Assembly (NCBI GenBank): GCA_016210545.1
Contig: JACQTY010000103.1
Coordinates: 194 to 64,193 of the forward strand
Source of the DNA: Chloroflexota bacterium
Lineage (GTDB): Bacteria > Chloroflexota > Dehalococcoidia > JACVQG01
DNA: 64,000 bases
Reading direction: 5' to 3'
The number at the start of each line of letters is the position of its first letter. The first letter of the stretch is position 1. A program made the position numbers and the translations under genes. Positions 25,799-41,601 of the stretch are shown one piece after another. Below the pieces are notes generated by a model. That model saw only the letters and a program-made list of their open reading frames with translations, was not told the origin of the DNA and made no database searches.

Positions 25799-27232
25799 AT
25801 GAAGGTCCTTCTAATCAATCCCAACTACGTCACCCAGGTGTATGGAGAGGAGACTCTGGACTACTTGGTAGCGCCCCTCGGGCTGGCCTACGTAGCGGCA
25901 GTTCTCAAGCGAGACGGTGTGGACGTGAGCTTGCTAGAGGCTAATGCCCTCGGCCTGGGCATGGACGACATAGAAAAAGAGATCAAACGCCAGAAGCCGG
26001 ACCTGGTTGGCATTACGGGGACTACGCCCCTTATTGCCCGGGTAGAGGAAATCGCCCGGCGAGCCAAGTCGGCAGACAAGGGCATCAAAGTGGTGGTGGG
26101 CGGTCCCCACGCTACCATTCTTCCCCAGGAGGTGTTGAAAAGCCAGAACATCGACTTCTGTGTGCGCGGGGAAGGTGAAATCACTGCCCTCGAGCTTGTG
26201 AAGGCATTGGAAAAGGGCGGCGACTTTGGCGCCATTCTGGGGCTGGGATTCAAGAGCAACGGGCAGATCCACCTGAATGACAGCCGCCCGCTCATCAAAG
26301 AACTGGACAGTCTCCCATTCCCGGCCAGGGAGTTGCTCCCGATGGAAAAGTATATTTTCCCTCTTCCTACGGGTGCAGTGGCGCGGTTCACCAACCTCAT
26401 CTCAAGCCGGGGTTGCCCGTACCTTTGCACTTTCTGTGGGCAGCACAATATCTGGACGCGCCTGGTGAGGTTCAGAAGCCCGAAGAATGTTGTCGATGAG
26501 ATACAGGCAGTCAAAGACAAATACGGCGTCGCCTTTGTGGGTTTCACCGATAGCAACTTCCCGCTGAACCGCAAGATAACCATGGACATCTGTGACGAGA
26601 TGGCGGCGCGTGGGATCAAGATAAAGTGGGCCTGTGGCTCACGGGTGGACCTGGTAGACCAGGAATTGCTGAGAAAGATGCACAAGGCTGGATGTCAGCA
26701 GATCAACTTCGGCGTGGAGTCGGGAAACGCCGAGATCCTGAAGGGTTACAAGAAGGGCATCACCATTGACCAGGCCAAGACTGCCATAAAGCAGGCGAAG
26801 AAGGCCGGACTCAAGGTGTATACCTACTTCATGGTGGGGGGGCCGGGCGAAACCAGGGAGACGGCGGAGGAGACGATCAAGTTGGCCTAGAAACTCGACC
26901 CCGACTACGCCCAGTTCTCCGTTGCCACGCCATTTCCGGGGACGGAGCTATTTGAGATGGCCAACGCTGGGGGCGCGCTGGGGAGCTACGATTGGACTCA
27001 GTTCCTGACCTATCAGGCGCCCCTATTCGCTACGAAGAACCTTTCCGCAGCGGAGCTCGAGGAACTCAAGGCCAGAGCGTTCCGCAGCTTCTACCTCCGG
27101 CCGTCTCTGATGTTGAAGAAGGCACTGCAAATCAGGTCTTTGTCCGATATCAAGATTCTGGCCAAGGGGTTCCGTTTTGCTTTGAAGCTGGGTAAGGGGA
27201 AGGCAGCAGCGGCCGCGGCCAAAACATCCTAG
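25799..27232 (+). pseudogene. B12-binding radical SAM protein, paralog 2, interrupted by an in-frame TAG at 26888-26890
   Basis: GGPHAT and GCPYLCTFC motifs. The reading frame continues unbroken after the TAG as KLDPDYAQFSVATPFPGTELFEM..., which aligns to the paralogs (ELDPFAINLSIATPYPGTEL, VSPLWPMYSIVTPYPGTEL). The TAG sits where paralogs have Lys or Tyr (AAG/TAY), one substitution away. Intact length would be 477 aa. Confidence 0.65.
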
Positions 27233-33842: not shown

Positions 33843-35351
33843 GTGCTTGAAAGGGCAACGATGAAGGGCAGTTCAATAAAGAAAGTTCTACTAATTAATC
33901 CTCCGTGGTACAGAATATTCGGTGAAAGTATGTATAACAATCCTTTGGGGATATCCTATTTAGCTGGCGTGCTAGAGCAGAGTGGCATAGAGGTATCAAT
34001 CTATAATCCGGACATTGTTACCAGAGGTAAGAAATCCACGGATGAGAGTCGTATTCCCAAATACCATACCTACATAAATACCCTGCGTAGTCTGGAGCAT
34101 CCGTTGTGGAGCGAGGTTGAAACCGTAATTGCTCGACATCAGCCCGACCTTGTAGGTATCACTGTGATGACGGCCAGATACGGATCAGCATTGAACGTGA
34201 GCAAGATTGTGAAGAGGCTGTCTAAAGACGTGCCGGTTGTATGGGGCGGGATACACCCTACAATCATGGCAGATGACTGTTTGAAACACCCTGAAGTGGA
34301 CGTAGTCGTAAGAGGCGAAGGGGAATACGTTTTCAAGAACCTAGTAGAACACTTCGGACAGTTCGGTAGTATGGCCGGAATCTCCTACAGAGATGGCACC
34401 AAGTTCGTGCACAATCCTCCAATGCCATTAATTCACAATCTGGACAGCCTGCCGTTCCCCGCCAAGCACCTCATTGTTGACAAAGAAAAAATGCCAAGGG
34501 AGAGTTTCGGGAACATATTGGGTGCTAGGGGCTGCCCTTTCGATTGCATATTCTGTGGAGCGCACCTCATCTGGTCCCACAAGGTAAGACATCGTTCCCC
34601 AGAGAATGTTGTCAGAGAAATAAGGGAGACGAAAAACAATTTCAGAACTAACTACTTTGTCTTTGAAGATGATACCTTTACCGTGAACAAGAAATATGTA
34701 TTGGCGTTGTGTGACCTTCTGATAAAAGAGAGGATGCGTATACTGTGGAGTTGTAAGACGAGGGCTGACCTGATCAGTGATGATTTGATTGCTAAAATGA
34801 GGGAAGCGGGCTGCGATTCAATCGAAATCGGGATCGAATCAGGCAGTGACGAGACACTACAAAAGATGAAAAAGGGCATCACTACAGAACAGGTGGTTCT
34901 GGCAAAGGCGCTCTTGGAAAAATATAAGATAAAAATGGAGTCAGGCTTCATGTTTGGTTTCCCATGGGAAACCAAAGAAGACTTCCAAGAAACGACTGCC
35001 TTTATGAAAAAGGTGTCTCCATTGTGGCCTATGTACAGCATCGTTACACCCTACCCGGGTACTGAGCTTTACGACATGGCAGTTGCCCAGCGCCTCATCC
35101 CTGATAACCCGGATTGGAGCACGTTTTACCCTGAAAGAGAAGGCGGATACCTATCGAAGGGCGTACCACAGGATGAAGCAGAGAAAGTTTTCTCTCAGAT
35201 TGAAAAGGAGTTCACCCAATATACAAGAAGGCAAAAGAGGAGAATCCTTCTTTCGCACCCCTGGTACGTCTTTCTAAGGACCAAGAATACGGGCTATTTT
35301 AACATACGCACCATATGGAGTTTCCTCAGGAAATACCTTTGGGTTAAGTAG
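33843..35351 (+). CDS. B12-binding domain radical SAM protein, paralog 4 (low-GC copy)
   Basis: VLLINPPWYRIFGE..., GGIHPT and GCPFDCIFC. Closest to paralog 1 but encoded with AT-rich codons (about 45% GC versus about 60% in the flanks). Confidence 0.85.
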   Translation: MLERATMKGSSIKKVLLINPPWYRIFGESMYNNPLGISYLAGVLEQSGIEVSIYNPDIVTRGKKSTDESRIPKYHTYINTLRSLEHPLWSEVETVIARHQPDLVGITVMTARYGSALNVSKIVKRLSKDVPVVWGGIHPTIMADDCLKHPEVDVVVRGEGEYVFKNLVEHFGQFGSMAGISYRDGTKFVHNPPMPLIHNLDSLPFPAKHLIVDKEKMPRESFGNILGARGCPFDCIFCGAHLIWSHKVRHRSPENVVREIRETKNNFRTNYFVFEDDTFTVNKKYVLALCDLLIKERMRILWSCKTRADLISDDLIAKMREAGCDSIEIGIESGSDETLQKMKKGITTEQVVLAKALLEKYKIKMESGFMFGFPWETKEDFQETTAFMKKVSPLWPMYSIVTPYPGTELYDMAVAQRLIPDNPDWSTFYPEREGGYLSKGVPQDEAEKVFSQIEKEFTQYTRRQKRRILLSHPWYVFLRTKNTGYFNIRTIWSFLRKYLWVK

Positions 35352-36454: not shown

Positions 36455-37317
36455 AGTTCACCGGGCCTACCATAGTGGAACTGCGCGCTTCTTACCCTCC
36501 GGAGAAGCAGAGATTCGATAGCGGGAACCTGTGGGGCTTCCTGGTTATGCGCAGAACGTCATTCTACCCTACATGGCTACTGGTGCGGCTGGGCTTATCG
36601 GCCAACACTGTGACTGCCCTGAGTTTCGTTGTGGGGCTGGCCGGAGCCGCCTTACTGGTCGCCGCCTGGCGCGACGCGTTGCCCTTAGCCGGCGCGGTAC
36701 TGGTGAACCTGTGGAACTGGCTCGACTACGTGGACGGGAACATAGCCAGATATAAGCGATCCGAAAGCAGCTACGGCCACTTGCTCGACCAGACCGTAGG
36801 CAGTGTCGTCGTGGTCTTGTTCGGTATCGCGGCGGGGCTAAGCGTCTACTACGACCGCGGTTCAGTGTTGGCGCCGTTTTTCAGGCACCTGGGGATACGC
36901 CGGTGGCTGTTTGTGGTATTGGCCCTGAGCGGGGTATGGTCATATACACTCCGTTTCTTGCTGAGGCAGTCGCGGGAGCAATTCGCGAACCTCTTCCCCC
37001 GGGCAGACGTTTCCAGTCGCCGACAGAGCGCAGTGGAAAGGGGCAGCGTAGTCTTTTCCTCGTGGGTCGACCATGCCATATCGCTGTTGCCGCCTTTGCT
37101 GCTCGTCGCGGCTATAATGGACGGCATGGCCGGGTTCGTCATTCTCTATGCGCTCCTCTTTGGCCTTAGCGCTATCATAGCTTTGGTGCAGTTCGGAGCG
37201 CTGGTGCAGAGCCATTTGCCAGGGAAGGCAAGTAATGTTAGACACGGCGGCAACACTGCGTTGAACCCCGGCCCCAACAGCCACAGAGAGGGCCACGGGC
37301 GAAGCCAACATGACTAA
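36451..37317 (+). CDS. CDP-alcohol phosphatidyltransferase family membrane protein
   Basis: D-x2-DG-x2-AR...G-x3-D-x3-D signature LDYVDGNIARYKRSESSYGHLLDQTVGSVVVV, with about 6 TM helices. ATGA overlap with the upstream methyltransferase, and an 8-nt overlap with the downstream cytidylyltransferase. Confidence 0.7.
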   Translation: MKFTGPTIVELRASYPPEKQRFDSGNLWGFLVMRRTSFYPTWLLVRLGLSANTVTALSFVVGLAGAALLVAAWRDALPLAGAVLVNLWNWLDYVDGNIARYKRSESSYGHLLDQTVGSVVVVLFGIAAGLSVYYDRGSVLAPFFRHLGIRRWLFVVLALSGVWSYTLRFLLRQSREQFANLFPRADVSSRRQSAVERGSVVFSSWVDHAISLLPPLLLVAAIMDGMAGFVILYALLFGLSAIIALVQFGALVQSHLPGKASNVRHGGNTALNPGPNSHREGHGRSQHD

Positions 37318-38008
37318 GCCAAATGTAGTGGGCATAGTGCCCGCCCGGGGCGGCTCTAAAGGCATACCCAGAAAGAACATCAGGCCTCTTTTGGGAAAGC
37401 CGCTGATACACTATACTCTTAGCGCGGCTCTACGATGTAAAGCTCTTGACAGGGTAGTGGTATCTACCGAAGATGAGGAGATAGCCAGAATAGCCAAAGC
37501 ATGCGGCGCCGAGGTAGTTGCCAGGCCCGGAGAACTGGCTCAAGATGATACACCTTCGATCCCTGTGTTCCGCCACGTGGTCGAACACCTGAAGCGTGAA
37601 GAGGGCTACCTGGCGGACATCATCGTTGTTCTCCAGCCCACCTCGCCCTTGAGGAAAGCGGAGGACATCGAGGCCGGAATCAGAAAATACCAGGGCAATC
37701 CCTGCGACTCGGTGATCAGCGTCTGCCCGGTGGAGCACCCGCCGCAGTGGATGTACCGCCTGGAAGGTGATAGAATGGTAGCTTTGCTGGGCGAGGACAA
37801 GCGGGTGTTGCGCCGACAAGACGCACCGACGGTATACCGGCTCAACGGGGCAGTGTATGTAGTGGGCAGGGACTGGCTGATGGCCAAAGACTGGCTTATC
37901 GGAGACAATTCCTTGGCTTTCGTGATGGCCCCGGAGCGGTCGCTGGATATAGATACGGAGATGGACTTGGTCATAGCTGAGGCTTTTCTGAGAGGAAGGC
38001 CAGGCTAA
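37310..38008 (+). CDS. acylneuraminate cytidylyltransferase family (NeuA/PseF/LegF-like CMP-sugar synthetase)
   Basis: N-terminal VGIVPARGGSKGIPRKNI signature of the CTP_transf_3 family. 232 aa. Confidence 0.8.
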   Translation: MTKPNVVGIVPARGGSKGIPRKNIRPLLGKPLIHYTLSAALRCKALDRVVVSTEDEEIARIAKACGAEVVARPGELAQDDTPSIPVFRHVVEHLKREEGYLADIIVVLQPTSPLRKAEDIEAGIRKYQGNPCDSVISVCPVEHPPQWMYRLEGDRMVALLGEDKRVLRRQDAPTVYRLNGAVYVVGRDWLMAKDWLIGDNSLAFVMAPERSLDIDTEMDLVIAEAFLRGRPG

Positions 38009-38150
38009 TACGAACGCGGCAGTGGGTGCAAGAACACTCTGGGTATTGTATATTTATCTTGAGCCAGAGCCATCACGGGGACGTTCAAGAAACTATCTGC
38101 ACTGGACCGGTCTCGCTAGTGGAAGATTGCTTATTGGGGGATAGAGCCAT

Positions 38151-39014
38151 ATGGGGACGAGGTGGGGGAAAGTTAAAGTTGACATATCGCAGGTCTACGC
38201 GGAAGTAACAAGTTGCGCTTCGTCCTTCCCCGAGGTAGAGGCTGTGCTTCTCTTTGGTTCTCGCGCTCGCCAGGAGGAAACCCCTCTGAGTGATGTGGAC
38301 CTGGCCTATCTCCTGGAAAAGGGGTTGGCGCCGTCTACCGAGGCAGAGATAGACACAAAGCTCTACAATGGGATAAGCCGAATCCTGGGCACTGATGAGA
38401 TAACACTATTAGACCTCGGTAAAGCTCCTCTTTCCATAGCCTTCTCTGTGTTTCAGGAGGGGAGGGTGTTGTTCTCCCGGAATCCCCAAAGGTTGGCGGC
38501 TCTTCAGGAACGAACGTTGATTCTCTATCCTGAAATCCACCGGTTCAGGACTGAAACGCTCGCCGAGTTTGAGAGGAGCTTAAAGGGGGGGCAGATGGAT
38601 GTCTCGCGGGAGAGAATCCTTTATTACTTGCGCTTCGTCAAAGAAGAGGTAACCAGATTGAAAGAACTGGCAAACCTAACCAAAGAGGAGTATCTCGCCA
38701 ACAGCGATAGCCAGATAGTGGCCGAGAGAAGATTTCAGAGAGCCGTGGAAAGCTGTCTCAACATAGGCAATCATATTATCTCCAAACAGGGACTAAGGCT
38801 GGCTGAGGATTATGCATCCGTGTTTAGGGTCCTGGCTGAGTCTCACATCATATCCGGGAAACTTGCTGAGCGGATGTCTGATATGGCCAGGTTCAGGAAT
38901 CTCCTGGTCCACGTCTACTGGAATATTGACCACGAAAAGATATATGAGCAGATGCCTGAAAGAATCAGCGCCCTGGACTCTTTCATAGATGAAATCCACA
39001 CATTTATTACTTAG
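38151..39014 (+). CDS. fused minimal nucleotidyltransferase (MntA-like) - HepT/DUF86 (HEPN) protein
   Basis: N-terminal LLFGSRARQEETPLSDVDLAYLL (GS...D.D Pol-beta NTase motif). C-terminal RFRNLLVHVYWNIDHEKIY (Rx4HxY HEPN motif). About 50% GC versus about 60% upstream. Confidence 0.7.
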   Translation: MGTRWGKVKVDISQVYAEVTSCASSFPEVEAVLLFGSRARQEETPLSDVDLAYLLEKGLAPSTEAEIDTKLYNGISRILGTDEITLLDLGKAPLSIAFSVFQEGRVLFSRNPQRLAALQERTLILYPEIHRFRTETLAEFERSLKGGQMDVSRERILYYLRFVKEEVTRLKELANLTKEEYLANSDSQIVAERRFQRAVESCLNIGNHIISKQGLRLAEDYASVFRVLAESHIISGKLAERMSDMARFRNLLVHVYWNIDHEKIYEQMPERISALDSFIDEIHTFIT

Positions 39015-39180
39015 CGCAGCTAGAGTTTTGAAGATCGGGAACAGACGGTTGACGAAAGAGCGCTTTATTGAGGATAGCTCCCTGGCCCTGGTGCCAGTGG
39101 GAATATCACTGGACATAGATACGGAGATGGATATTCTCATGGCCGAAGTATTGCTCGCGGCGAGGAGGAAAGCAGGATGA
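38989..39180 (+). pseudogene. C-terminal remnant of a second NeuA/PseF-like cytidylyltransferase
   Basis: Translation ...RVLKIGNRRLTKERFIEDSSLALVPVGISLDIDTEMDILMAEVLLAARRKAG* aligns to the C-terminus of the 37310-38008 product (...AVYVVGRDWLMAKDWLIGDNSLAFVMAPERSLDIDTEMDLVIAEAFLRGRPG*). Its TGA overlaps the ATG of radical SAM paralog 5 (ATGA). Confidence 0.6.
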
Positions 39181-40679
39181 AAGTGCTGCTCATCCAGCCC
39201 CCCCACGATTTTTGCGGCACGGGACGGCCCCCTGCCTTTTTCCCTTCGGGGCTTGGTTACATTGCTCAACAGATACTCAGCGCTGGCCACGAGGTGCAGG
39301 TACTTGAGATATGGGCCAATGGTCTCATCCAGGACCGAGTACTAGAAGAAATAGACAAGGCCAAGTATGACTTGGTTGGCATAAGCGCCCACTCCAGCCA
39401 GTATGCCTATGTGAAGTGGCTAAGTGCCGAACTCAAGAAGAGGAGCAGCAGCCCTGTAATATTGGGGGGTGCGCTAGCCACCCTGACCCCAGAGATTGTC
39501 CTCGAGCATTCCTGTGTGGATATTTGCGTGGTCAGCGAAGGTGAGGAAACCGTTACTGAATTGTTAGAAAAGCCGGACAGTCTGGATAAGACAGCAGGCA
39601 TATATTTCAAGGATGCAGCGGGGAAGATTCGCAAGGGACCAGTCAGGGCCTATACTAAAGACCTGGATGCTACTCCTTTCCCCGCCTGGGATTTCTTCCC
39701 AATGGACGTATATCTGGCTAACTGCACAGTTCCCGGGCAGAGCCATTTGAAAGCGATTAATGTTATCGCTGGCCGGGGTTGCCCTTATAGCTGCCACTTC
39801 TGCTCTAAGACTTTTACTGGAGCCCGTTTTCGGTCAGTGGACAATATTATGAAAGAGGTCTTGGCGCTGAAGGAAAAGTATGGCATAAAGGGCCTCTTCT
39901 TCGCCGATGAGCTATTGCTTATCAATAAGAGGCGGGTATATGAGCTGTGTGAGGCTATAGAGCCCCTGGGGCTGAAGTGGTATTGTCAGGGACGGGTCAA
40001 CCTGGTAGACTATGAACTTCTGAAACGCATGAAGAAAGCGGGCTGCGTTTCCGTAGGCTATGGCGTGGAATCAGGTAGCCAGACTATCCTGGATAACATG
40101 AAGAAGGAGACAACTGTCGAACAGGGTATCCAGGCGCTTAAGGTTACGGCCAAGGTAGGCCTTCGTGCAGTAGTACAGATGATGTATGCCTACCCCGGCG
40201 AGAATCAGCGGACTGTCCAGGAGACAGTAGATTTTTTCAAGAAAGCGCCGCACGCGGGTTGGATGGCTTTTTCGATTACCACCCCACTGCCTGGCACTCA
40301 ATTGTGGCAAGATGCCATTGACAAAGGCATCATATCGAACGAAGAGAGTTTCCTGGAACGGATGGCGGGAGGCCACAATCCTCGGGCCGAACATGCCAAC
40401 CTTAGCGATCTGACAGAGGATGAGTTCGCTCCTTTACTGCGGCGAGCGCAGAACCAGATCCTGGTCAACTCAATACTCAGACATCCTCTGCTTTCTATGA
40501 GATATACATTTTCGGACACTGTTCACTATGTACGTCGCTTTGGAGCTAAGAAAACATTGGGGGCAGTTTGGGACAGAATAACCATCTTGTTCCCCAAGTT
40601 GAGAATACGCCGCCGCGGAAGTGAAGAAAGCTGTAGCCTCCCTGTGCCTGTCAAAATCAAAGAGGATAACCGGTCGTAG
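39177..40679 (+). CDS. B12-binding domain radical SAM protein, paralog 5
   Basis: MKVLLIQPP..., GGALAT and GCPYSCHFC, YGVESGS. C-terminal extension of about 100 aa. Confidence 0.85.
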   Translation: MKVLLIQPPHDFCGTGRPPAFFPSGLGYIAQQILSAGHEVQVLEIWANGLIQDRVLEEIDKAKYDLVGISAHSSQYAYVKWLSAELKKRSSSPVILGGALATLTPEIVLEHSCVDICVVSEGEETVTELLEKPDSLDKTAGIYFKDAAGKIRKGPVRAYTKDLDATPFPAWDFFPMDVYLANCTVPGQSHLKAINVIAGRGCPYSCHFCSKTFTGARFRSVDNIMKEVLALKEKYGIKGLFFADELLLINKRRVYELCEAIEPLGLKWYCQGRVNLVDYELLKRMKKAGCVSVGYGVESGSQTILDNMKKETTVEQGIQALKVTAKVGLRAVVQMMYAYPGENQRTVQETVDFFKKAPHAGWMAFSITTPLPGTQLWQDAIDKGIISNEESFLERMAGGHNPRAEHANLSDLTEDEFAPLLRRAQNQILVNSILRHPLLSMRYTFSDTVHYVRRFGAKKTLGAVWDRITILFPKLRIRRRGSEESCSLPVPVKIKEDNRS

Positions 40680-41601
40680 AGGGACGTTTTTGGATACTGT
40701 CTCCTGCAATCTCTGCGGTGGTGTTGAGTCTGTTGTCATAGCTACCAAAGGTCGCTATGATAGTTCCTGCGTTTTTGTTCAGTGCCGGTCGTGCGGTCTA
40801 GTGTACATGAACCCGCGCCTTACGACGGACGAATTGGCTGATTTCTATAAGAGAGCCTATCGTGATTTGTATAACCCCGGCTGTACACCTGAAAGATTCG
40901 ATCGCGACACATTGCCGACCGCTGTGGCCAATGTCAAATGGGTTGTGAAGTTCACCAAACCAGGTGGCCCAAAGACAATCTTAGATATTGGCTGTGCTAC
41001 GGGAAACTTCCTGCGCCTCTTGTCAGAGGCTGGTTGGGAGAATTGGGGCGTTGAGCCTGACTCAGGTTATGCTTCTTACGGCCAGTCGAAAGGATTAAGC
41101 ATCATTAATGGCACACTGGAGAATACGAGAATACCCGAATACTGCTTTGACGCGGTGACGATGTTTCATACGCTTGAACACCTGGTTAGTCCGTTAGAGT
41201 CGTTGCACAAGGTACGAAGTCTGCTCAAGCCCGAGGGCAAACTGTTTGTGGTCGTACCCAACCTGAACAATCTTAGCCTTAGAATACGAAAACGCTATGC
41301 AAACTACTACTTCCAGCCGGCGCACAATTATGAGTTTACCATTAGAACACTGAAGCGTATGTTGCAGAGAGCTGGTTTTTCAGTCGTGAGCTGCAAAACC
41401 AGGGGCATACAGATTGGTGTGCCTGGAGGTTTGGACAGGGTGGTAGAGACTTCGCAAGGTACCATGGCTACTTTTTTTCGGCGGTTGCTGGTAATGCCGT
41501 ACAGGTTCACGAGGAACGTAGCCGGGGTCATAGTGGGACTGCCCGGGTGGGGTGAGGAGATACGCGTTGTCGCCAGGAAACAGCCAGAGGCGCATCCATG
41601 A
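40621..41601 (+). CDS. class I SAM-dependent methyltransferase with an N-terminal Zn-ribbon
   Basis: CNLCGG...CRSCG (CxxC x2) followed by ILDIGCATGNFL (motif I) and LKPEGKLFVVVPN. The probable real start is TTG at about 40692 after an AGAGGGA SD. Confidence 0.75.
   Translation: MKKAVASLCLSKSKRITGRRGTFLDTVSCNLCGGVESVVIATKGRYDSSCVFVQCRSCGLVYMNPRLTTDELADFYKRAYRDLYNPGCTPERFDRDTLPTAVANVKWVVKFTKPGGPKTILDIGCATGNFLRLLSEAGWENWGVEPDSGYASYGQSKGLSIINGTLENTRIPEYCFDAVTMFHTLEHLVSPLESLHKVRSLLKPEGKLFVVVPNLNNLSLRIRKRYANYYFQPAHNYEFTIRTLKRMLQRAGFSVVSCKTRGIQIGVPGGLDRVVETSQGTMATFFRRLLVMPYRFTRNVAGVIVGLPGWGEEIRVVARKQPEAHP

Follow-up and report, generated by a model that had tools for sequence, protein, structure and literature searches.

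A fused MntA-HepT gene at the seam of a mosaic nonulosonic-acid glycan cluster in a Chloroflexota genome

We analyzed a stretch of 64,000 nucleotides (the window) from contig JACQTY010000103.1 of a Chloroflexota bacterium (GenBank assembly GCA_016210545.1). Positions 38123-39029 of the window most likely constitute a self-contained, single-gene type VII cassette of the FhepTA-like kind, which is located where two modules of a mosaic nonulosonic-acid glycan cluster meet and stands outside the sugar pathway. On the basis of domain and motif assignments, the 287-aa gene of the cassette is intact and joins an MntA-type nucleotidyltransferase to a HepT-type HEPN RNase, with both activities being predicted. 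It belongs to a kind of single-gene toxin-antitoxin that has already been described, and the locus is a case of ordinary genome mosaicism and no new system. Feature coordinates are collected in Table 1.

Table 1. Coordinates of the fused gene, its cassette and the flanking features in the window
Feature	Position	Strand	Description and basis
Intact cytidylyltransferase CT1 (CTP_transf_3, PseF/NeuA/LegF-like)	37310..38008	+	232 aa; PF02348, 5.4e-29 (Pfam)
Spacer between CT1 stop and cassette	38009..38122		114 nt
MNT-HepT cassette	38123..39029	+	gene with ~28 nt upstream (ribosome-binding region) and ~15 nt downstream; DNA shared with closest relatives
Fused MntA-HepT ORF	38151..39014	+	287 aa; N-terminal minimal nucleotidyltransferase ~aa 20-130, C-terminal HEPN RNase ~aa 161-282 (activities predicted)
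Nucleotidyltransferase active-site motif G36-S37...S47-D48-x-D50	38256..38300	+	invariant in 55 fused homologues
HEPN RNase motif R249-N-L-L-V-H254-V-Y256	38895..38918	+	conserved among 55 fused homologues
Premature TAG 39012-39014 (CAG in relatives), then ancestral stop TAG 39021-39023	39012..39023	+	C-termini of L004 and L005
3' remnant of second cytidylyltransferase	39049..39180	+	~43 codons and stop, pseudogene fragment; BLASTP, family HMM, DNA alignment
B12-binding radical SAM paralogue 5	39177..40679	+	first intact right-module gene; Pfam; start overlaps remnant stop (ATGA)

Domain and motif assignment of the fused gene

The initial annotation had described the 287-aa product as a minimal nucleotidyltransferase fused to a DUF86/HepT domain, with the motifs GS...DVDL and Rx4HxY, and both parts of this description were confirmed. 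Pfam placed a Polbeta/MNT domain (PF18765; 1.5e-16) at residues 20-112 and a HepT-like domain (PF01934; 2.1e-29) at residues 164-282, and the protein scored above two NCBIfam equivalog cut-offs, with 116.6 bits for HepT_toxin (NF047751; cut-off: 60) and 72.2 bits for MntA_antitoxin (NF047752; cut-off: 60). An AlphaFold2 model of the protein (mean pLDDT: 82.7) was compared by using Foldseek, for which the best matches were the MntA chain 7bxo_A (TM-target: 0.81) and the HepT chain 7bxo_G (TM-target: 0.91); the HepT chains 7bxo_G, 6m6u_H and 7ae6 matched the HEPN half with TM-target scores of 0.86-0.92. HepT and MntA chains in the PDB were also matched by sequence. PADLOC returned only weak matches, between the MNT half and the candidate system PDC-S09.

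Motif conservation was determined through an alignment of 55 fused homologues that span 35-79% identity. In the nucleotidyltransferase half, where the window protein reads G36-S37...D48-V-D50-L, residues G36, S37, D48, D50 and the third carboxylate D82 (codon: 38394-38396) are invariant. In the HEPN half, R249, N250, L251, L252 and V253 are invariant, and H254 and Y256 are kept in at least 90% of the homologues. Y256, two residues past the catalytic His, is the predicted (oligo)AMPylation site, by analogy with the role established for the Tyr beside the HEPN motif (PMC13000451, PMC7641770). The window protein contains two cysteines, C22 and C202, and the HEPN half therefore has one. Its C-terminus is 3 residues shorter than those of its relatives, since L004 ends in ITQRS-stop and L005 in ITQHN-stop, and the window reads IT-stop-RS-stop; the missing residues are non-conserved.

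Cassette limits and genomic contexts

Cassette limits were determined by blastn against the closest relatives. Nucleotide identity to L004 (82%) and L005 (81%) extends over exactly the cassette coordinates, and both flanks are unrelated, so that the segment acts as a movable single-gene cassette. The earlier proposal that the gene is an insert is thus upheld, both by these unrelated flanks and by the Dehalococcoidia locus L087, in which the cytidylyltransferase is followed directly by NeuB and the MNT-HepT gene is absent. We found no convincing inverted or direct repeats at the limits 38123 and 39029, no attC-like 3' element (the shared 3' flank is just ~15 nt), and no integrase or prophage genes adjoining the cassette in the window; neither an insertion sequence nor an integron cassette is recognizable as the vehicle of the gene. 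The spacer upstream of the cassette showed no homology to L001, L004 or L005, and a promoter/terminator scan gave no promoter-like site in it. An exact-protein look-up of the fused protein matched no contig.

Single-ORF MNT-HepT loci were found in GTDB representative genomes of many phyla (19 loci). Across these and L004-L006 the neighbors vary, with other MNT/HEPN, PIN, ParE, Uma2 and transposase genes among them, and four further homologues adjoin HNH, Pup-ligase and PIN/DUF433 genes. Glycan genes occur in ~6 of the ~27 homologue contexts, a count that was read by eye and is anecdotal. Of the four closest copies of the cassette, three (window, L004 and L006) adjoin sugar-nucleotide genes, which may point to a functional tie to glycan loci.

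Module seam and cytidylyltransferase remnant

The left cluster module ends with CT1 (NCBIfam PseF: 162.9 bits, under the equivalog cut-off of 205.7). L087 is syntenic with the window from 28.5 to 38.0 kb (55-88% amino acid identity), and its cytidylyltransferase is 69-70% identical to CT1. On the right side, radical SAM 5 homologues of 54% identity directly adjoin an intact cytidylyltransferase in L003 and L002, with the order cytidylyltransferase-radical SAM-NeuB in L003. The closest relative of radical SAM 5 (68% identity) is found in L001, in which a CT1-like gene, an antitoxin with a ParE-like toxin, and radical SAM 5 follow one another and no cytidylyltransferase remnant is present. This arrangement places the seam at 38009-39048, with an L087-like module on its left and a "cytidylyltransferase-radical SAM-NeuB" module on its right, and it documents the module-wise assembly of a Chloroflexota glycan cluster. 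No close relative with the same seam was found on a long contig, and a scan of genome contigs with radical SAM 5 alone gave no relative.

A step in GC and GC3 coincides with the left edge of the seam at 38008. The GC content is 56-59% in the left genes, 50.0% in the MNT-HepT gene, and 50.5-51.5% in the remnant, radical SAM 5 and the next methyltransferase, with a uniform level of ~50-51% from 38009 to ~41600. A segment of ~50% GC between flanks of ~60%, as had been noted, is therefore correct for the left flank and incorrect for the right one, where the low GC continues through ~41600.

The 63-codon ORF at 38989-39180 had been regarded as the last ~55 aa of a decapitated second cytidylyltransferase that is homologous to CT1 and lost two-thirds of its length. 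The homology is real, and the ATGA overlap with the B12-radical-SAM gene starting at 39177 was verified, but the cytidylyltransferase portion is just ~43 codons (39049-39177), with ~80% of the enzyme missing. The ORF begins within the HepT gene, and its initial ~14 codons are out-of-frame cassette DNA: codons 1-14, within 38989-39029, are homologous to the cassette 3' end and short 3' flank in L004 and L005. The gap between cassette and remnant is at most 20 nt (39030-39048).

The remnant is 50% identical to CT1 over 40 aa (BLASTP, single comparison; E=2e-8) and 76% identical at the DNA level over 50 nt. A family HMM of 119 other members gave 19.7 bits for the remnant (HMM positions 200-232 of 233), compared with 7.6 bits for the best of 2000 shuffles; the match holds the C-terminal "rsiDIDte-D" block, which lines up with the end of the profile. 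The remnant alone is unrecognized by Pfam and NCBIfam, and phmmer with the 46-aa remnant against 1.84 billion representatives retrieved only itself and three repetitive proteins. Because the remnant is too short for database-wide significance, the family HMM with its shuffle control was used in place of phmmer, and significance was assigned through these targeted comparisons (the BLASTP pair, and the family HMM against shuffles). The N-terminal nucleotide-binding/catalytic region of CTP_transf_3 (~190 residues) is absent, so the remnant is a pseudogene fragment and no gene. A Shine-Dalgarno sequence, AGGAGG (39163-39168), lies in the remnant 8 nt before the ATG at 39177, and the remnant probably persists as the carrier of the ribosome-binding site and start context for radical SAM 5. 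We rejected the possibility that the remnant was copied recently from the 3' end of CT1, since its identity to CT1-type ends (just 45-50%) is that of an ordinary family member.

Alternative explanations

Two alternatives concern the nature of the reading frames. The fused protein could have been taken over by the glycan pathway as a nucleotidyltransferase for small molecules (sugar, lipid or antibiotic-type), like ANT(4')/KNTase or LinB, an option that had been raised for this gene. It is co-oriented with the glycan operon with no predicted terminator between them, the homologues in the window, L004 and L006 lie beside sugar-nucleotide or glycosyltransferase genes, and glycosyltransferase and UDP-sugar dehydrogenase families were seen by eye in L013, L022 and L024 among the L007-L025 neighbors. 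Like the window protein, ANT(4')/KNTase, LinB and AAD(9) have a helical domain after a Pol-beta-type nucleotidyltransferase domain, but they give no significant sequence match and superpose poorly overall, and the window protein keeps the HEPN RNase motif. That motif and the Tyr predicted to be AMPylated are invariant or nearly so in the clade, and a nucleotide-binding helical domain needs neither. The score for ANT(4')-I (NCBIfam ANT_4p_I) is 11.5 bits versus a cut-off of 350, and the TM-scores of LinB and AAD(9) are just 0.28-0.31 (rmsd: 10-13 Å), versus 0.8-0.9 for MntA/HepT chains. On motif conservation, NCBIfam score and superposition, an ANT(4')-like identity was rejected. The syntenic cluster L087 lacks the gene, and most homologues occur in non-glycan contexts; the heterogeneous contexts, the kept motif and the ANT(4')-I score contradict recruitment, which we consider very improbable. 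Still harder to credit is that the 63-codon ORF encodes a functional small protein or that its cytidylyltransferase likeness is due to chance. Its frame is open throughout and the predicted protein is present in public collections (P0181), but the out-of-frame start inside the HepT gene and the loss of the entire catalytic region argue against function, and the HMM-versus-shuffle test together with the pairwise E-value excludes chance.

A further alternative concerns the truncation, for which it had been proposed that two full-length cytidylyltransferases once stood in tandem and that insertion of MNT-HepT itself deleted the 5' part of the second. In keeping with this, the remnant lies immediately to the right of the cassette, and it is as far from CT1 (45-50% identity) as other family members are, so that it stems from a distinct gene and not from a recent duplicate. 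A six-frame search of 38000-38160 with the cytidylyltransferase HMM found no 5' cytidylyltransferase sequence upstream of the cassette, which excludes a simple insertion, and an intact second copy was looked for in four related loci, none of which (0/4) has tandem cytidylyltransferases. The composition of the cassette is common to the downstream block, and the seam of L001 holds a different toxin-antitoxin module without a remnant. The truncation could equally represent a module-joining breakpoint or a gene that was imported already cut. Deletion by insertion is thus possible but doubtful, and the more specific statement that MNT-HepT took the place of the 5' two-thirds of a tandem paralogue is not borne out by the upstream search, the related loci and the downstream extent of the low-GC block. 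The truncation may date from the joining of the two cluster modules. In our preferred reading, the left module (to CT1, 38008), which is syntenic with L087, meets a right module that begins with radical SAM 5, and the fragment at 39049-39177 would be the leftover of the right module's own, now redundant, cytidylyltransferase.

Comparison with known systems

Experiments published in 2026 established that a fused MNT-HEPN protein, FhepTA (SO_1440 of Shewanella oneidensis prophage CP4So), is a toxin-antitoxin that oligoAMPylates itself (Yao et al., Nucleic Acids Res 2026, PMC13000451). Compared through the published description of SO_1440, FhepTA and the window system are each encoded by one ORF (276 aa and 287 aa, respectively), combine an N-terminal MNT domain carrying the nucleotidyltransferase motif with a C-terminal HEPN domain carrying RφxxxH and a neighboring Tyr, stand alone in variable DNA, and have known two-gene relatives. 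FhepTA is prophage-borne, whereas neither a prophage nor another mobile-element context is visible around the window gene. The C163/C270 redox switch of FhepTA, which is a trait of the Shewanella protein and not of the architecture (PMC13000451), cannot operate in the window protein, because a HEPN half with a single Cys cannot contain the switch cysteines. The canonical two-gene type VII HepT/MntA systems (S. oneidensis SO_3165/3166, PDB 5YEP/7BXO; Aphanizomenon flos-aquae, PDB 7AE2-7AE9) have the same catalytic residues and target Tyr, but their two genes form hetero-oligomers, whereas the window system is one polypeptide with a fixed 1:1 stoichiometry.

The fusion is not peculiar to the island, as it belongs to a widespread fused clade whose type has already been characterized (PMC13000451). 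Homologues of 280-300 aa align over 100% of the window protein, and more distant relatives are two-gene mntA-hepT operons. The clade includes Chloroflexota, Armatimonadota, Bipolaricaulota, Poribacteria, Acidobacteriota and others, and because it is this broad and its members keep the fused form at 35-79% identity, the fusion predates the recent one in Shewanella. Fused MNT-HEPN proteins, studied so far only in Shewanella, thus form an old multi-phylum clade with both active sites conserved, which gives the published FhepTA mechanism a wider scope and makes cysteine-poor variants available for comparison. For annotation, the 287-aa gene becomes a fused type VII MntA-HepT (FhepTA-like) toxin-antitoxin and no pathway enzyme, and the 63-codon "hypothetical protein" becomes a pseudogene fragment carrying the translation start region of the next gene. 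Nothing in the locus would surprise a specialist.

The seam also resembles region D' of the Neisseria meningitidis cps island, where a galE2 remnant is described at a polysaccharide-cluster junction (PMC5349592); in both cases an intact gene and a cut-down paralogous remnant mark the boundary of horizontally assembled glycan modules. The window differs in that its remnant is just ~43 codons long and overlaps the start of the next gene, and in that a toxin-antitoxin cassette fills the seam.

Proposed mechanism and implications

By homology, the N-terminal nucleotidyltransferase would use ATP to (oligo)AMPylate Y256, in the same protein or in a partner subunit, where this residue lies beside the putative HEPN RNase motif R249x4H254, and the covalently attached MNT domain would also hamper HEPN dimerization. 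A fall in ATP, degradation of the MNT domain or another event may serve as the trigger, with phage infection as a speculative candidate, upon which an unmodified HEPN dimer would cut RNA and cause growth arrest. The MNT-HepT gene would have no part in the sugar pathway.

It seems unlikely that toxin-antitoxin cassettes occupy the module seams of nonulosonic-acid glycan clusters repeatedly and with a functional role. If they did, such cassettes might stabilize recently gained glycan modules through addiction, or might link an abortive-infection RNase with a phage-receptor-glycan locus. Two observations bear on this point: two different cassettes, the fused MNT-HepT in the window and a ParE-type pair in L001, occupy the same cytidylyltransferase/radical SAM seam, and the closest MNT-HepT copies adjoin NeuC-like and GalE genes.

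Gene content around the fused ORF

As the initial annotation described, three co-oriented ORFs precede the gene for a B12-binding radical SAM paralogue (radical SAM 5), whose start codon overlaps the preceding stop as ATGA. The surrounding region is a nonulosonic-acid glycan cluster that includes NeuB, a PglD-like acetyltransferase, two DegT aminotransferases, a GDP-mannose-dehydratase-type enzyme, glycosyltransferases, a CDP-alcohol phosphatidyltransferase, methyltransferases and several B12-radical SAM genes. The contig belongs to a Chloroflexi/Chloroflexota MAG. The methyltransferase ORF, listed with a GTG start at 40621, shares 59 nt (40621-40679) with the 3' end of radical SAM 5, and its real start probably lies further downstream. 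Another radical SAM ORF (25799-26890, 363 aa) stops right at the end of the radical SAM domain and is followed by a separate 91-aa ORF (26957-27232), which may be its lost C-terminal part; the gene (25799-27232) could thus be split or frameshifted, as a pseudogene or an assembly error.

Features at the fused MNT-HepT locus
Feature	Coordinates	Remarks
CT1 cytidylyltransferase, 232 aa	37310-38008	same strand as next two ORFs
Fused MNT-HepT ORF, 287 aa	38151-39014	co-oriented with CT1
63-codon ORF	38989-39180	co-oriented; stop overlaps radical SAM 5 ATG
Radical SAM 5, B12-binding	39177-40679	

Identity and conservation of the fused protein

Pfam places a Polbeta/MNT domain at residues 20-112 and a HepT-like domain at residues 164-282, and the motifs seen in the initial annotation are present (G36-S37...D48-V-D50-L and R249-NLLV-H254-V-Y256). 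Two NCBIfam equivalog models are passed, type VII toxin HepT with 116.6 bits and antitoxin MntA with 72.2 bits (cut-off 60 for each). Among solved structures, those closest in sequence are type VII HEPN toxins and MNT antitoxins. An AlphaFold2 model (pLDDT 82.7; pTM 0.51, which leaves the orientation of the two domains to each other uncertain) matched solved chains of MntA (TM-target 0.81) and HepT (TM-target 0.86-0.92), and the two-domain antibiotic nucleotidyltransferases LinB and AAD(9) superposed poorly on it (TM 0.28-0.31, rmsd 10-13 Å). The protein is annotated as DUF86/HepT in public databases.

Both the fused MNT-HEPN architecture and its mechanism are already published. FhepTA of Shewanella oneidensis (SO_1440, 276 aa) was shown experimentally to oligoAMPylate its own HEPN tyrosine; toxicity was seen with its HEPN half alone but not with the full-length protein, HEPN dimerisation is additionally blocked by the MNT domain, and an extra redox control depends on two additional HEPN cysteines (PMC13000451). 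By contrast, the HEPN half of the window protein has a single cysteine (C202), so the redox layer cannot operate in it.

The fusion is not peculiar to this island: the same architecture was found in 59 protein clusters of ~280-300 aa from Chloroflexi, Poribacteria, Armatimonadota, Bipolaricaulota, Methanosarcinales and many metagenomes. It occurs as a single ORF at 19 loci (L007-L025) in GTDB contigs (one genome per species), and remoter relatives (26-43% identity) have the two separate genes of an ordinary mntA-hepT operon (~140 + 140 aa). In an alignment of 55 of the 59 clusters (35-79% identity), G36, S37, S47, D48, D50, D82, R247, R249, N250, L251, L252 and V253 are invariant, and H254 and Y256 are kept in at least 90%; this conservation indicates that both catalytic centres and the predicted AMPylation-target tyrosine are under selection. 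The breadth and age of the clade are mildly unusual relative to the Shewanella example.

Limits and contexts of the cassette

The closest relatives of the fused protein (P0002, 79% amino acid identity; P0003, 77%; P0005, 63%) lie on contigs L004-L006. DNA homology is confined to 38123-39029 (82% to L004, 81% to L005), a cassette that comprises the fused gene with 28 nt upstream and 15 nt downstream, and the flanks are unrelated on either side in all three loci. No inverted repeats or target duplications bracketing the cassette were found. The relatives end in ...ITQRS* or ...ITQHN*; a CAG->TAG change at 39012 stops the window ORF three codons early, with the old stop codon still present at 39021-39023, and is probably harmless because family members differ in their C-terminal tails.

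Neighbours of the fused clade are varied: other MNT/HEPN pairs, PIN, ParE, Uma2, a transposase, HNH, Pup ligase, DUF433/PIN small-ORF arrays and, in some cases, glycan genes. The latter are glycosyltransferases and a UDP-glucose dehydrogenase, which our own reading of the L007-L025 translations assigns to L013, L022 and L024. For the two closest copies outside the window, translated fragments read by eye place the C-terminus of a NeuC-like UDP-GlcNAc 2-epimerase (L004:3-260) directly upstream in L004, where it overlaps the cassette start, and a GalE-like gene (L006:2-796) directly upstream in L006, which hints that the sub-clade of closest copies tends toward glycan loci. No constant partner gene was found among the neighbourhoods compared, which fits an autonomous module and speaks against a pathway enzyme. 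On contigs L092-L095 (contexts of P0013 and P0015), a Pup ligase gene lies upstream of the fused gene, which is embedded in a run of small ORFs, DUF433 and PIN proteins among them; the region resembles an islet rich in toxin-antitoxin genes that is conserved in several metagenomes.

A cytidylyltransferase remnant before radical SAM 5

The proposed similarity of the 63-aa product to cytidylyltransferases is real. In a single, pre-specified BLASTP comparison it matched CT1 with 50% identity over 40 residues (E=2e-8), DNA identity reaches 76% over a 50-nt core, and a family HMM built from 119 CT1 homologues, with CT1 itself left out, aligned residues 28-60 to profile positions 200-232 of 233 with 19.7 bits (best of 2000 shuffles, 7.6 bits). 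Pfam, NCBIfam and an exhaustive phmmer search with the 46-aa piece as query (1.84 billion proteins) miss it, because the piece is so short. Its extent had been overestimated at ~55 aa, with the 5' two-thirds of the gene lost: codons 1 to ~14 (38989-39029) read the cassette 3' end out of frame, so that the cytidylyltransferase-derived part is only ~39049-39177, ~43 codons, which correspond to the final fifth of a gene of this kind. Upstream of the cassette, no 5' remnant was found. Public collections list the ORF as a predicted protein (P0181, 100% identical); this entry is most likely an artefact of annotation that joins out-of-frame cassette DNA to a pseudogene fragment.

The remnant is 50% identical to CT1 and 45% to the L001 cytidylyltransferase, no closer than family members are to each other, which marks it as the relic of a distinct gene; a recent CT1 duplicate was rejected since the identity is only at the general family level. 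AGGAGG lies inside the remnant, 8 nt ahead of the radical SAM 5 start codon, and we infer that the remnant was retained because of it.

The seam between two cluster modules

Locus L087, from the Dehalococcoidia MAG GCA_015661045.1, is syntenic with the window over 28.5-38.0 kb (identities: dehydratase 75%, DegT 79%, GT4 58%, radical SAM 88%, methyltransferase 87%, CDP-alcohol transferase 55%, cytidylyltransferase 69%). There, NeuB directly follows the cytidylyltransferase, and the window NeuB is only 54% identical to it, no higher than its identity to NeuB proteins from unrelated clusters. In other clusters, radical SAM 5 homologues adjoin an intact cytidylyltransferase and NeuB (CT-rSAM-NeuB in L003, rSAM-CT-NeuB in L002). 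No tandem pair of cytidylyltransferases is present in L001, L002, L003 or L087.

A composition step coincides with this seam. Genes to the left have 53-59% GC (GC3 0.64-0.73), and the cassette, remnant, radical SAM 5 and next methyltransferase each have 50-51.5% (GC3 0.55-0.59). The low GC ascribed to a ~1.1-kb MNT-HEPN segment therefore holds against the left flank but not the right, where downstream genes share it in a tract of ~3.6 kb (38009-41600).

The closest radical SAM 5 relative (68% amino acid identity) is on L001, a Logan SRR29054603 contig, in the order CT1-like gene end, small antitoxin gene, ParE-like toxin gene, radical SAM gene. The module at L001:350-914, equivalent to window 38009-39176, is thus a different toxin-antitoxin module in the corresponding seam of a relative, and L001 has no cytidylyltransferase remnant there. 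Such recurrence of toxin-antitoxin cassettes at one cluster seam is mildly unusual.

We favour a reading in which a stand-alone, FhepTA-like toxin-antitoxin cassette sits where two modules of the glycan cluster meet, and in which the remnant is what is left of a cytidylyltransferase that belonged to the right-hand module. The cassette may itself have truncated that gene, as the initial annotation held, may have arrived after the truncation, or may have been imported jointly with an already truncated gene. The other earlier suggestion, a sugar or lipid nucleotidyltransferase recruited into the glycan pathway, is unlikely because the RNase motif is invariant, the protein stays below the cut-off of the ANT(4')-I NCBIfam model (11.5 bits; cut-off 350), genomic contexts are heterogeneous and the fused gene is missing from the syntenic L087 cluster. 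A truncated sugar gene at a polysaccharide-cluster junction is a familiar sign of modular assembly, like the remnant of galE2 in the cps island of Neisseria meningitidis (PMC5349592).

Elsewhere in the cluster, the B12-radical SAM paralogue at 33843-35351 has a markedly low GC of 45.9% (GC3 0.535) and lacks an equivalent in L087, where a methyltransferase takes its place although the locus is otherwise syntenic; it is probably a further inserted or exchanged module of a mosaic cluster.
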